Positions 4,310-58,306 of a stretch of 64,000 nucleotides of DNA are shown piece after piece (positions within the stretch are counted from its first letter, which is position 1; each line of letters starts with the position of its first letter). A program made the translations under genes and the position numbers. The DNA comes from Candidatus Woesearchaeota archaeon (lineage in GTDB: Archaea > Nanobdellota > Nanobdellia > Woesearchaeales > 0-14-0-80-44-23): contig JAVZCZ010000001.1 in assembly GCA_038874135.1 (NCBI GenBank), forward strand, positions 32,001 through 96,000. Direction: 5' to 3'. The notes under the pieces are model-generated. The model ran no database searches. It saw nothing but the letters and a program-made list of their open reading frames with translations, and was not told where the DNA came from.

Positions 4310-5272
4310 TTACTTATTCCACCGCTCTCTTATGGGCTGGATTATACCTTCCAGGCTTTCAGCAACTGCCCCTTTAAGGTCCAGAGGGTGTATCTCTCCC
4401 TTCTGATATTTTTCTTCCAGCTCCTCATAACTCTGGAGCTCTATGCTTCCCCCGTATTTTTCAGGCCTTTCAATTTTCAGAGAGCCCTTTCTTGGGAAGA
4501 TTATCAGTTTTGCTATCTGCATTATGGGGTTGTCTTTAGCAATCTTTTCCGGGCAGTATGCCTGTCTTATAGTCTTTTTTATCTCATCGTAAGAATCTGT
4601 TACTGATATTCCCGATCCGGGTATTGACTTGGACATCTTCTCTCCAGGTCCTTTCAGTGAGGTTATTAGAGGGGTGTGCACTGCTACGAATCTGTGTCCT
4701 ATAAGCTCTGAGTTCTCCCTGCCGAGCATGTGCACTTTTCTCTGTTCCATCCCGCCTTCTGCCAGGTCAACCTTTAGGTGTTTTATGTCTGCCACCTGCA
4801 TTATCGGGTATATCAGCTGGGAGATTGTTGCGTTTTCTATGTCGCGCGCGATCTCCTGCATGCTTCTTAGGCCCCTGTTTATTGTGCACTTCTGCGCCAT
4901 TTTGAAGACGTCCAGCTGGTATTCCCTTTCGAACTGGTAGGAGCTTCCAAGGACTACCTCTGCGTCCATTCCTATTGCTTCTATTGTTTTCTTCCAGTTC
5001 TGTACTTCCCTCTTTATCTCTTCCTCTTCGCCCTTCCTGTTTAGGTAGGCGTGTATGTCTGCGAGTAGTATCTTTATTTTGAAGCCAGCCCTGTGTAGGT
5101 CCATGAGCTTTGTTATTGTTACGAAGTGTCCCAGGTGCATCGGTCCAGACGGCTCGTAACCGCAATAGGCTGTCGGGTGCTCTTTTTCTCTTAGAAGGTT
5201 CTTCAGCTCTTCTTCTGTGATTATCTCTTCAGTGTTTCTCTTTATGAGTTCAATTCTGGATTGAAAGTCCAT
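4310..5272 (-). CDS. tyrS: Tyrosyl-tRNA synthetase (archaeal type)
   Basis: YCGYEPSG, HLGH, YPIMQVAD, GGMEQRK, KMSKS and IHPLDLK motifs. Confidence 0.97.
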   Translation of the reverse strand: MDFQSRIELIKRNTEEIITEEELKNLLREKEHPTAYCGYEPSGPMHLGHFVTITKLMDLHRAGFKIKILLADIHAYLNRKGEEEEIKREVQNWKKTIEAIGMDAEVVLGSSYQFEREYQLDVFKMAQKCTINRGLRSMQEIARDIENATISQLIYPIMQVADIKHLKVDLAEGGMEQRKVHMLGRENSELIGHRFVAVHTPLITSLKGPGEKMSKSIPGSGISVTDSYDEIKKTIRQAYCPEKIAKDNPIMQIAKLIIFPRKGSLKIERPEKYGGSIELQSYEELEEKYQKGEIHPLDLKGAVAESLEGIIQPIRERWNK

Positions 5273-5373
5273 ACTGCAGAGTTTTCCATTCCTCTCTTAT
5301 AAATCTTTCTAGAAGCGGGAATAATTAGTTGAAAAATGAAAAAGATTGTGTAAAATTAGAGAAGTTGAAATGC

Positions 5374-13954: not shown

Positions 13955-14065
13955 TGGGCCGGAGGGGATTCGGACCCCCGACAACCTGATTAAAAGTCAG
14001 GTGCGCTATTGCCCACGACACCTTGACATTTTCATGGTGAGCGCTCCAGGCTGCGCCACCGGCCC
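13955..14065 (-). tRNA. tRNA-Lys(UUU) with a 37-nt D-loop intron (14009-14045)
   Basis: Acceptor GGGCCGG/CCGGCCC-A; anticodon arm CCUGA-CUUUUAA-UCAGG; BHB-like motif GCCU-GG^A...GGGC-AA^U whose splicing restores D-loop AGCCUGGUA; T-loop reads UCCGAAU. Confidence 0.9.
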
Positions 14066-14327: not shown

Positions 14328-14450
14328 TCCCCTCCCCCGGACTTGAACCAGGAACCTTCCGGTGACGGCTGTCCCGATTTCATTCATGCTCTCTCGGAGT
14401 TGTCTTCGGGAATCTACAGCCGGACGCTCTAACCATTGAGCTAGGAGGGG
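14328..14450 (-). tRNA. tRNA-Tyr(GUA) with a ~50-nt anticodon-loop intron (14364-14413)
   Basis: C1:G72 acceptor CCCCUCC/GGAGGGG-A; UCCGG-CUGUAG^A-CCGGA; T-loop UUCAAGU; removing the intron gives a 73-nt tRNA. Confidence 0.92.
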
Positions 14451-55972: not shown

Positions 55973-57055
55973 CTATTTTCCAACTACAATCTTCTTAGCT
56001 TCTATAATTGCTTGCTTGTGCTTCTCCTGATGCTCCTTAAGCATCTTGTTTAAGAATTCCATGCAGTTCTTCTTGCACTCCCCACAGAGAAGCCTGCCGC
56101 TTCTGCACTCTGAATATGTCTCTTCTAAGAATTTGTCTTCAGGATGGTGAAACTTAAAGATTTCATAGACCTTGCAAACTTCAGGATTGCCACCTTTTTT
56201 TCTTTGCTCCTCAACAGATTCTCTGCCACCTGTGAATGCCTTGGATATCTTCTTCTTTACTTCGTCAGGAGTGTCTTTTAAGAATATTGCAGTTTCAGGG
56301 TCTGAGGAGCTCATTTTGGAGTTTTCTTTAAGCCCTGAAAGGTGTTGAAAATAAAAGAAGGATGGAATCTCAAAATTGTAGTCCAGACGCTTTGCCACAT
56401 CTCTTGTCAGCCGAGCGTGAGGATCCTGGTCTATACCTATACCTGTTACCGAAGGGGCCTTCCCAAAGTATTCTGGAAGCTGCACGTGTAGTATGTCTGC
56501 TATCTGCAGGAAAACAGAAGCGATCTTTCCCAAGTCTGTATGCCCGTATATTGCTTCAAACATATTGTTGGTTATCTTTTTTGAAATCTCATATGAAAGC
56601 TGATAATACTCTTTCGGCATGTTTGACTGGGCGTAAATCTCTTCAGCAGGAATTCCGAGAGCGATTGCATCTGCAGCGTTTCTTATTCCTATCTCCTTAG
56701 CAATCTTCATAGAAGGCACTTTTGGGTCTGGTCTACTTACATATCCGTCAATATCTGCTATACAAAATCTGCTCTTGGCTCCTAATTTTCTAAATTCCAG
56801 ATAGAAGTCTATGTCTGTTTTGTGTCCAAGATGTAAATCCCCCGAGGATGCTATTCCTGTTAGTTGTAAGAATTTTTTTCTCTGTTTTATTGCTTCGGCT
56901 ATCTTCTGAAAGTCACGATGTGCTATTATTATCTTTCTTTTGAACAGATAGTGCTGGCTGATTGAGTAGTCGTTAAATTTTGATAATCCGAATTCTTCAA
57001 ACACATGTTCATAGTTTCTTATTGCGTTTGAGTCCCATGCGTTTATCTGAGTCAT
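55973..57055 (-). CDS. trpS: Tryptophanyl-tRNA synthetase (archaeal type)
   Basis: SSGDLHLGH, QIADIL, GIDQDPH, KMSSS, AFTGG and LLCGECK motifs. Confidence 0.96.
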   Translation of the reverse strand: MTQINAWDSNAIRNYEHVFEEFGLSKFNDYSISQHYLFKRKIIIAHRDFQKIAEAIKQRKKFLQLTGIASSGDLHLGHKTDIDFYLEFRKLGAKSRFCIADIDGYVSRPDPKVPSMKIAKEIGIRNAADAIALGIPAEEIYAQSNMPKEYYQLSYEISKKITNNMFEAIYGHTDLGKIASVFLQIADILHVQLPEYFGKAPSVTGIGIDQDPHARLTRDVAKRLDYNFEIPSFFYFQHLSGLKENSKMSSSDPETAIFLKDTPDEVKKKISKAFTGGRESVEEQRKKGGNPEVCKVYEIFKFHHPEDKFLEETYSECRSGRLLCGECKKNCMEFLNKMLKEHQEKHKQAIIEAKKIVVGK

Positions 57056-57120
57056 GAATATTGAAAATGGCAAGATTGTTTATAAATTTATCTTACTTTG
57101 TTAATTGTTATAGAAAAATA

Positions 57121-57347
57121 GGTGCTGGCGTTCTGGACTCGGTGAAAGAGTTCCTTTGCATGCACCTATCGAACTTAACCGTTGGTGCTGCATCAAGGTT
57201 ATCTCTTTCGCACGTGGAATATCGCTTACCGCGGTGTAGATCGCATACGGCGAGTCAAGGTCCAGTCGCCGTATTAATCGCCGAACACCGGGCAGAGGCT
57301 ACTCCCGCCGCATCCTTTTGCAGGACACCCGAAGTTTCCACGCCAGC
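57121..57347 (-). ncRNA. Unassigned ~224-nt structured non-coding RNA
   Basis: GC-rich island in an AT-rich spacer; terminal helix GCUGGCGU/ACGCCAGC and four internal hairpins; G-U pairs favour the minus strand; TATA box 23 nt before the 5' G and a U-tract after the 3' end. Confidence 0.72.
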
Positions 57348-57370: not shown

Positions 57371-57385
57371 TATATAAACTTTTCT
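57371..57385 (-). promoter_or_regulatory. BRE/TATA promoter of the ncRNA
   Basis: Minus strand reads GAAAAG-TTTATATA. Confidence 0.6.
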
Positions 57386-57460: not shown

Positions 57461-58306
57461 ATGATGAATATGAGCGAATACGAGGCTAAGCTTGAAATTG
57501 CTAAGCAAATTTTAGAATCCCTTTGTAATAAAGAATTGTCACATTCAGAACTGGAAGATATGGTGTACGACTTCTTTAGAGTCAGAAAGAGCAGAGAAGA
57601 AAAAAGCGAATTCCTAAACAATTATGACTCCTATAAGCTTATCCCTTATTCTAAATATGGTTTTGCGCGCAACATTGATAAGAAAAAATGCCTATCCAGA
57701 GAAGACAATTATTGGTTAAGATTTTTGTTCAACCACAAATCAGATTTTCACTACAAAATCCCCAAGCAGGGTTCTGATATTGAATTGTATTACAAAGCAT
57801 ACTTTACTTTAAAAGCAGAAAACCCTGAGGAATTCAAGAAAAATTATGAAAGACTTGGAATGGCTCTTCCTGAAATAATTGCCTTCCTATACGCCCTTGG
57901 AATTGTGAATAAGGATGAAATCCAGGCAAAAGTTTCTAACAATCCATACAAGATGTATACAACCAGAGACAACCTTGTTGTGCACTGCCGCAAGCCCGAA
58001 ACAGTTAAACAGGCAATTGCAGGTATAAATCACATCCTTGAAAAATATGGCACAACAATTGAGATTCACCACGGCTTTGACTTTTATAATAATGGTTCTA
58101 AATTTGAGGGAAGCCACACCCAACTGATATCTAGAATAATCTCAAGAAGGCTCTTAATGAATATAGATGATTACACTTTAATATCACCTGAAAATCTTGC
58201 CTCTTTTATACTTTCACAAAACGATGAGCTATCCCGCATGAGCCCACTTAATTTATACGCTCAGCTTAAAATGACTCAAGGTGAAAATTTTGAAGAGATA
58301 CAATAA
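57461..58306 (+). CDS. Hypothetical protein, HopA1-like
   Basis: KAYFTL..QAKV..P...RDNLVVH..EGSHTQLISRII resembles the HopA1 pattern (by-eye match only). Confidence 0.55.
   Translation: MMNMSEYEAKLEIAKQILESLCNKELSHSELEDMVYDFFRVRKSREEKSEFLNNYDSYKLIPYSKYGFARNIDKKKCLSREDNYWLRFLFNHKSDFHYKIPKQGSDIELYYKAYFTLKAENPEEFKKNYERLGMALPEIIAFLYALGIVNKDEIQAKVSNNPYKMYTTRDNLVVHCRKPETVKQAIAGINHILEKYGTTIEIHHGFDFYNNGSKFEGSHTQLISRIISRRLLMNIDDYTLISPENLASFILSQNDELSRMSPLNLYAQLKMTQGENFEEIQ

Follow-up and report, generated by a model that had tools for sequence, protein, structure and literature searches.

The DNA analysed here (the window, 64,000 nt at its full length) comes from a Woesearchaeota genome, G000, which is assembled as a single 909,956-bp contig and is 99.4% complete. 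On its minus strand, upstream of trpS, the window holds the gene of a structured RNA that reads, from 57347 to 57124, GCUGGCGU...ACGCCAGC, these being the two strands of its closing stem (Table 1), and a search of the whole genome with covariance model R2 returned this single copy. An RNA had been predicted at this place and on this strand from the letters alone, and reading the sequence confirms both; the covariance model extends the 3′ end by a 3-nt tail, ACC, to 57121. The RNA scores 250.9 bits with model R1 and 229.7 bits with model R2 (both described below). Its minimum free energy is −96.6 kcal/mol, compared with −71.8 ± 4.4 kcal/mol for dinucleotide shuffles (z = −5.58, with 0 of 200 shuffles equal), in agreement with the high degree of structure that had been proposed, and its GC content is 0.56–0.61 vs. 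0.20–0.37 in the flanks.

Table 1. Features of the RNA gene and of the neighbouring trpS, in window positions; nt numbers count from the first base of P1.
Feature	Position	Strand	RNA nt	Remarks
TATA box of the RNA gene, TTTATATA	57371–57378	−		Ends 24 nt before P1 begins
Structured RNA	57124–57347	−	1–224	224 nt, from first to last base of P1; models R1 and R2 match over the full length
P1, 5′ strand, GCUGGCGU	57340–57347	−	1–8	
GGA	57337–57339	−	9–11	Near-invariant; can pair with UCC, nt 211–213
P2, 5′ strand, UUCGG	57329–57333	−	15–19	Partner CCGAG, nt 206–210, 57138–57142
P3 hairpin	57312–57326	−	22–36	
Long 5′ arm	57210–57311	−	37–138	Helices 4–10, with compensatory changes
Pseudoknot strand 1, CUGGAC	57260–57265	−	83–88	Loop at the tip of the 5′ arm
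3′ arm	57144–57209	−	139–204	Stem GAAAGAG/CUCUUUC, internal loop AGAUAAC, more stems, terminal loop GGUUAAG
Pseudoknot strand 2, GUCCAG	57133–57138	−	210–215	Inside invariant ACCGAGUCCAGA, between P2 and P1
P1, 3′ strand, ACGCCAGC	57124–57131	−	217–224	
T5 run	57114–57118	−		Begins 5 nt past the closing stem; likely archaeal termination signal
trpS TATA box, TTTATAAA	57079–57086	−		24 nt before the trpS ATG
trpS (neighbour, outside the element)	55973–57055	−		ATG at 57055; Pfam tRNA-synt_1b, E = 3.1e-39

The dedicated TATA box and the U-tract that had been described for the RNA are both present, and oligo-T is an established archaeal terminator. A TATA-like box about 24–30 nt upstream is common to most of the 44 homologous loci inspected, which suggests that the RNA is an independent gene with its own TATA box here and in most other loci. 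The location upstream of trpS was correctly described for G000, where the two genes share a strand, but it is incidental, since they are divergent in the two closest relatives, G001 and G003, and trpS is absent from the neighbourhood of the RNA elsewhere. A T-box-like leader of trpS was rejected for these reasons and because trpS has a promoter of its own.

An ORF of 281 aa with no Pfam domain (57461–58306, +) diverges from the promoter of the RNA. A 27%-identical homologue is found beside or just downstream of the second RNA copy in G003 and another homologue occurs in G001, and otherwise the protein matches just itself among 5.8 billion proteins. As a linked partner of the RNA it was rejected, since no link to the RNA was seen outside family f1, and its position within f1 may be due to a gene order passed on by descent, with no link in function. 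Upstream of the G001 homologue, at the end of contig C82 of that genome (L015, ~2420–2517, −), there is a GC-rich, near-perfect long hairpin followed by a T-run, which may be another small structured RNA or a terminator.

A search of the window with Rfam 15 returned four tRNAs, none of them at the RNA, and at E ≤ 10 the RNA region gave at most chance snoRNA-type matches. Rfam 15 likewise matched none of 24 homologous loci (7 searched at E ≤ 0.1 and 17 at E ≤ 5), and no model of C/D or H/ACA RNAs, ribozymes, riboswitches, omega-RNAs and others came near its gathering score. The original prediction had noted the absence of tRNA arms, of SRP and RNase P motifs and of C/D or ACA boxes, and the RNA gave no corresponding Rfam family or ARAGORN call. 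A tRNA or tRNA-like identity was rejected given that the Rfam tRNA model and ARAGORN call other tRNAs in the window and none at 57121–57347. The tail ACC, which had been read as resembling the end of an acceptor stem, is found in G000 only, its counterparts in relatives being AAA, UUU, UAA, CGA and others; with this variable tail and no tRNA arms, an acceptor or CCA mimic was rejected as well. Elsewhere in the window, two Rfam tRNA matches drew no ARAGORN call, one at 14328–14450 (−; 52.9 bits, with a 53-nt insertion in the anticodon region) and a borderline one at 13955–14022 (−; 29.8 bits), and these are probably intron-containing or atypical archaeal tRNAs.

The original prediction also allowed for a highly diverged housekeeping RNA, and some features would fit a universal RNA (RNase P, SRP, 5S or tRNA-like) in disguise. 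For example, the closing helix brings the 5′ and 3′ ends together, the size is near that of reduced RNase P RNAs, and in one metagenome locus (L172) the RNA lies 220 nt past the 3′ end of 23S rRNA, a frequent position of 5S rRNA (23S rRNA at 1–730 and the RNA at 950–1179, both +). However, the complete genome of G000 holds canonical versions elsewhere, namely RNase P RNA at G000:C1:667488–667786 (158 bits), SRP RNA at G000:C1:549845–550116 (146.5 bits) and 5S rRNA at G000:C1:714767–714883 (RF00001, 67 bits). The RNA region itself gave no match to archaeal RNase P RNA (RF00373, with CR-I/CR-V forming P4) at E ≤ 10, nor to archaeal SRP RNA (RF01857; helices 5, 6, and 8), and a 225-nt RNA with a four-way junction differs from 5S rRNA, which has ~120 nt and a three-way junction. 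Considering also that there is zero Rfam signal, that the 3′ tail of relatives is not CCA-like, and that the RNA occurs in just 13 of 151 high-quality genomes (~9%), such an identity is almost certainly wrong.

Several further candidates were tried and rejected. In the BHB motif, a central helix of 4 bp has a 3-nt bulge on the 5′ side of each of its strands, whereas at P1/GGA-UCC/P2 the bulges AAC and AGA sit 3′ of a 3-bp helix, a mirror geometry that speaks against a BHB processing motif. A K-turn at the AGAUAAC loop and a T-loop or 11-nt receptor were judged by eye and found unsupported. Mimicry of rRNA was rejected in that an nhmmer profile and model R2, each run against the whole genome, return just the RNA itself, and a viral or mobile origin in that IMG/VR yielded one chance pattern match and no mobile genes recur nearby.

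Relatives of the RNA were found at the level of BLAST in G001 (same genus, 80% identity, cut by a contig end) and G003 (same family, 75% identity). A covariance model built from the three sequences of G000, G001, and G003 (R1) then gave full-length matches in other families of the order as well as a second copy in G003, and the rebuilt model (R2) was used to score pattern-scan matches from genome contigs and metagenome contigs. In all, there are at least 77 homologues, at least 74 of them distinct, in genomes of Nanoarchaeia/Woesearchaeota and in groundwater and sediment metagenomes, including Hainich groundwater wells (L150, L151, and L158), the hosts being labelled Woesearchaeota, Nanoarchaeia, 'archaeon', and so on. 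The 13 carriers matched by R2 among the 151 high-quality genomes of the phylum include 7 of the 16 genomes of family f94 and, within the same class, three that belong to other orders. A count by exact pattern within the order (9 of 401) is an underestimate, as many members differ by one pattern base. One carrier (L036, corresponding to G295:C1:2863–2991) is a MAG labelled 'uncultured Methanosarcinales archaeon' that belongs to the same GTDB order as G000, and its public label is probably wrong. Second or degenerate copies of the RNA are occasionally present (G003, G450, and L165). In L165, the degenerate copy (5080–5289, −; 33 bits) is without ACCGAG and the pseudoknot strands, is located ~340 nt upstream of an intact RNA and ORF unit (4519–4744, −), and looks like a decaying tandem duplicate.

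The RNA belongs to a new family of structured RNAs in DPANN archaea of the Nanoarchaeia/Woesearchaeota type, and neither it nor the peptide described below was found in the literature searched. The suggestion of a new archaeal RNA class has held up: neither the window copy nor 24 relatives match Rfam 15, covariation among homologues is very strong, and the family is large.

Over the at least 74 distinct sequences, standard pairs fill 88.5% of cells, vs. 34–40% when partners are slid by 1–3 columns, in an alignment that was fitted to the model and is thus biased toward the structure, the margin being very large. Compensatory changes are seen in 67 of the 79 pairs, and no shuffle reaches any of the measures. 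The covariation signal was clear already with three and with seven sequences, and judged on the alignment the support appears comparable to that of curated Rfam families. The fold is a compact four-way junction comprising the closing stem P1, P2, a P3 capped by a GNRA loop, and two long arms. P1 (7–8 bp) has compensatory changes in all seven of its modelled pairs, with 91.6% of cells paired, while P2 is paired in 98% of cells and almost invariant in sequence; between the two, the consensus has GGA and then a 3-nt bulge. P3 is likewise 98% paired, with a compensatory change in four of its five pairs, and its cap is GAAA or GGAA in relatives and a pentaloop, GCAAA, in G000. The 5′ arm contains a conserved internal loop (CCUCU/AAGC) and ends in a near-invariant hairpin loop, GACUGGAC-CUUGA-CUC, for which the consensus terminal loop is GACUGGACUAUAACUC. 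In the 3′ arm, helices 12–15 show a compensatory change in every pair and 82–97% of cells paired. The 3′ strand of P1 is preceded by the invariant ACCGAGUCCAGA, and about one third of all positions of the RNA are near-invariant across this class-level clade.

Most helices first drawn from the single sequence are present and supported by covariation: GCUGGCGU/ACGCCAGC is the closing helix, GUCCU/AGGAU forms a hairpin, CGGUGU..AUACGGCGA/UCGCCGUAU..ACACCG a long hairpin, and GAAAGAG..GCACC/GGUGC..CUCUUUC an arm. The one that had to be redrawn is the hairpin GGCGGGAG/CUCUGCC, as covariation instead pairs GCGGCGGGAGUAGC with GCGAUAUUCCACGUGC and leaves CCUCU as the near-invariant internal loop.

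The pseudoknot CUGGAC/GUCCAG is paired in 99.8% of cells over the at least 74 distinct sequences, and among the matches listed both of its strands are unchanged in 65 of 74 distinct sequences, the 5′ GGA being kept in 67 of the 74. In one variant (L265), AAGGGC occurs with GCCCUA, i.e., two compensatory pseudoknot pairs, and the 5′ GGA has become AUU, so that the GGA/UCC pairing is broken. In a second (L268), CUGGGC occurs with GCCCAG, i.e., one compensatory pseudoknot pair, and a 5′ GGG keeps a pairing of the GGA/UCC type. In a third sequence, a 5′ GAG with GUUCAG keeps the GGA/UCC helix by compensation and leaves a G-U in the pseudoknot. The pseudoknot and the 3-bp GGA/UCC helix would be mutually exclusive, and these three variant sequences lend some support, by covariation, to each of them. 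Since both pairings have support yet exclude each other, a switch or a triple interaction is possible.

A first clustering of neighbouring genes, made with an ORF cut-off of 80 aa, revealed no shared gene, and the neighbourhoods were re-analysed with small ORFs included. The bases downstream of the RNAs show ATG and then Lys codons. In 61 of the 66 distinct loci that are among the matches listed and extend at least 150 nt downstream, an ORF of 28–110 aa, mostly 40–70 aa, with at least 33% Lys+Arg, follows on the same strand. Its start codon lies at a median of 17 nt after the modelled 3′ end of the RNA (P1 plus the 3-nt tail; range −11 to +137) and abuts or overlaps P1 in about 10 loci; many of the short spacers have no Shine-Dalgarno, and a T-run follows P1 in about half of the loci. 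Most of these ORFs belong to one family (type 1), with the motif [GS]RxxSxKxKxSKV[KR]KL[IM][KR]LAK, and a different, Cys-containing small protein (type 2, MVCPKL..G.C.I....C..Y..KM....C) is found behind a subgroup of lower-scoring RNAs. Neither type has a match in Pfam or NCBIfam, the type-1 profile has none in the PDB, and for one type-1 member the ESM Atlas returned only its own unnamed archaeal cluster. Searched against 1.84 billion representatives, the type-1 profile found 69 relatives, all 31–99 aa long, with [GS]RxxSxKxKxSKV[KR]KL in common and 'hypothetical' where named, and type 1 is thus a real protein family. Gene callers often overlook these tiny polycationic proteins.

The RNA and the protein also go together across genomes. 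The type-1 profile matches 12 of the 151 high-quality genomes and R2 matches 13, and the 11 genomes that carry both have them always adjacent and on the same strand, with one pair spanning a contig break. The protein-only match is weak and contains stop codons, and G407, which has the RNA and no type-1 protein, encodes a type-2 protein 16 nt downstream of the RNA. In total, the RNA and a small ORF are adjacent in 12 of the 13 carrier genomes, the sole exception being G000.

Based on these patterns, we hypothesize, at a probability of roughly 0.4, that the RNA is the specific binding partner and the translational gate of the polycationic protein, the two making up a ribonucleoprotein under negative feedback. 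In nearly every relative, the RNA would continue in one transcript into the Lys/Arg-rich ORF of 40–70 aa, the polycationic peptide would bind the RNA specifically, and the folded P1 together with the pseudoknot would limit translation of the ORF, resulting in negative feedback. The contact between RNA and protein is something that we infer from adjacency and co-occurrence alone, and gating is plausible considering that in many loci the start codon adjoins P1 or falls within its end and that many short spacers have no Shine-Dalgarno.

Alternatively, the same layout might belong to a ligand-sensing, riboswitch-like element, in which a small molecule or ion (e.g., a polyamine, Mg2+ or a nucleotide) binds at the four-way junction and shifts the balance between GGA/UCC and the pseudoknot, thereby opening or closing P1 at the start codon, with orphan RNAs acting in trans or as terminator-only switches. 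In favour of such an element are the complex fold with many invariant nucleotides in junction and loops, the two exclusive pairings of the 3′ segment with some covariation in each, the start codon next to P1 and the T-run after P1, the last in about half of the loci. However, the downstream gene is always one kind of tiny protein rather than a set of pathway genes, and the gene context suggests no candidate ligand. Further, the pairing of lower-scoring RNA variants with the type-2 protein is a better fit to protein recognition or shared descent than to a single metabolite, and stand-alone copies with their own terminator have no gene to regulate. We therefore consider ligand sensing of this kind unlikely, in its cis as in its trans form.

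In G000, no partner ORF was found anywhere in the genome by six-frame motif and tblastn searches. A 106-aa protein (G000:C1:649991–650311, corresponding to L285:592–912, +) was considered as an unlinked partner and rejected, as its similarity appears only without composition correction and hhalign gives it a probability of 0.09. The N-terminal half of this protein is rich in Lys, the C-terminal half is strongly acidic, and the gene has its own TATA box and Shine-Dalgarno. The idea that the partner replaces L39e was dropped too, since the Pfam L39e model fails in carriers and non-carriers of the clade alike, which makes the test uninformative. An L39e-like small ORF (..RWAPFW..WRR..) is located at G000:C1:197780–197968 (+); PF00832 misses it in G000 as well as in four non-carrier relatives and detects it in two of five carriers only, below its cut-off, so that the model appears insensitive for this clade.

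The version of the RNA that adjoins the 5′ end of trpS, present in G000, in G001 and as copy 1 of G003, has no small ORF, and the second copy of G003, at a distance of 2.7 kb, has remained linked to an ORF. Among these three genomes, 12 pairs of the orphan version have changed on both sides, which argues that the orphan fold is under selection without the ORF. Orphans are found in at least four lineages (the window/L010, L012, L192, and L036). Within the proposed feedback model, the ORF would have been lost from the copy in G000 and its equivalent in close relatives, and the RNA would continue as a free small RNA, either in an RNA-only role or together with an unlinked protein, to which it would be a decoy or a partner; a free RNA in G000 is suggested by the lost ORF, the T5 terminator and the fold kept by compensatory changes.

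These orphans are also an argument against the feedback model, since a purely cis-regulatory role leaves the persistence of the RNA unexplained. Moreover, the RNA is more conserved than the protein, beyond what is usual for protein-binding leaders, which hints at a catalytic role or an interaction with some conserved machine; a core ribonucleoprotein would not usually be distributed so patchily, e.g., in 7 of the 16 genomes of one family; and the evidence on the pseudoknot and the GGA/UCC helix comes from just the three variants.

If catalysis is involved, the RNA might be a ribozyme or processing element, freed at its 3′ end by self-cleavage or by a cellular nuclease, yielding a stable RNA and a leaderless mRNA for the small protein, or it might catalyse a reaction in trans for which the small basic protein is the cofactor, as in bacterial RNase P. 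Catalytic RNAs typically combine a pseudoknot and a GNRA cap with unpaired nucleotides that hardly vary, as does this RNA, the many ORFs that begin 0–10 nt past the RNA without a Shine-Dalgarno would suit leaderless mRNAs made by cleavage, and the orphans are retained under selection. However, there is no similarity to Rfam ribozyme families, no cleavage site is inferable, and the patchy distribution disfavours an essential processing enzyme, so both versions seem quite unlikely. It is conceivable, although we are inclined to doubt it, that the RNA represents a new complex-fold archaeal class doing its own chemistry or sensing, as a ribozyme or a signal-responsive switch, with the 5–7 kDa polycationic peptide as its dedicated cofactor; the copy in G000 would then be a natural protein-free version, stabilised by its high GC content in a hot-spring organism.

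Distribution and gene order bring to mind yet another possibility, a toxin-antitoxin or immunity system like those of type III, in which the cationic amphipathic peptide (..SKVKKLIKLAK..) harms nucleic acids or membranes and is neutralised by excess RNA, orphan RNAs being antitoxin-only survivors. Consistent with this are the strictly two-part unit, in which the RNA gene precedes the ORF, often with a T-run in between, the patchy occurrence in variable genomic neighbourhoods, the occasional second or degenerate copies mentioned above, the two unrelated small proteins behind one RNA family, and the existence of orphans. Known type III antitoxins, however, consist of short repeats in tandem that an RNase toxin processes, whereas this RNA is a single-copy, non-repetitive, pseudoknotted fold of 225 nt, and its partner, a Lys-rich protein of 40–70 aa with no Pfam, NCBIfam or PDB match, is not an endoribonuclease of the ToxN/AbiQ type. 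In addition, class-wide conservation of the RNA is far above what is expected for fast-evolving addiction modules, viral contigs are essentially without the RNA (one chance match), and no mobile-element genes recur nearby. It is thus improbable that the unit is such a toxin-antitoxin or immunity system, and the feedback ribonucleoprotein remains our preferred reading.

Whatever the RNA and the peptide do together, they offer a directly testable RNA-peptide system in minimal genomes, where each retained element informs, and the protein-free orphans are a natural experiment on the RNA acting alone. With the covariance model and the peptide motif, hundreds of metagenomic loci can already be annotated.

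Among known systems, the autoregulatory leaders of ribosomal protein genes (e.g., L1, S15, and L20) and other protein-binding mRNA leaders are similar in that a structured RNA stands directly before a gene for a small basic protein of RNA-binding type, the start codon adjoins a helix and the protein could plausibly exert negative feedback. The adjacency expected of such a leader is seen in 61 of 66 loci of the family (among the matches listed) and 12 of 13 genomes, and is absent in the window, where no such ORF follows the RNA. However, the DPANN RNA is much larger (225 nt, with a four-way junction and a pseudoknot) and without detectable rRNA mimicry, its partner matches no known ribosomal protein, the unit is patchy rather than universal, and some copies of the RNA, including that in the window, are free genes with no ORF behind them. 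If the feedback-leader reading is true, the system follows a known regulatory logic in an unusually elaborate form. Cobalamin-type riboswitches share with it a length of ~200 nt, a four-way junction and the pairing of a loop with a downstream strand beside the translation start, but the DPANN RNA has no B12 box and no Rfam match, is followed by a single family of tiny proteins, and has free-standing copies; metabolite riboswitches in general precede functionally related genes of one pathway, and a single kind of downstream gene is seen here.

ToxIN (type III) has a comparable order of promoter, non-coding RNA, (terminator) and protein gene as well as a patchy distribution, but the DPANN RNA has no tandem repeat and is very highly conserved, and its protein of 40–70 aa has no endoribonuclease fold. 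Bacterial RNase P also combines an RNA of complex fold, with a closing helix and a pseudoknot, with a very small basic protein. In contrast, there is no similarity in sequence or structure model here, the RNA and protein genes are joined in one unit, and a canonical archaeal RNase P RNA is encoded elsewhere in the genome. The bacterial raiA motif RNA and OLE RNA are, like this one, stand-alone, promoter-driven RNAs with a conserved complex fold and an obscure biochemical function, and OLE RNA works with small dedicated proteins; the DPANN RNA differs from both in host domain and protein partner and has no homology to them. To our knowledge, apart from rRNA and the RNAs of RNase P and SRP, archaea have very few large non-coding RNAs of complex fold, none of them specific to DPANN. 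We rate the RNA and its peptide as a new class, since they fall into no Rfam, Pfam, NCBIfam or PDB family and no description was found in the literature searched, and the closest known systems resemble them in layout only.
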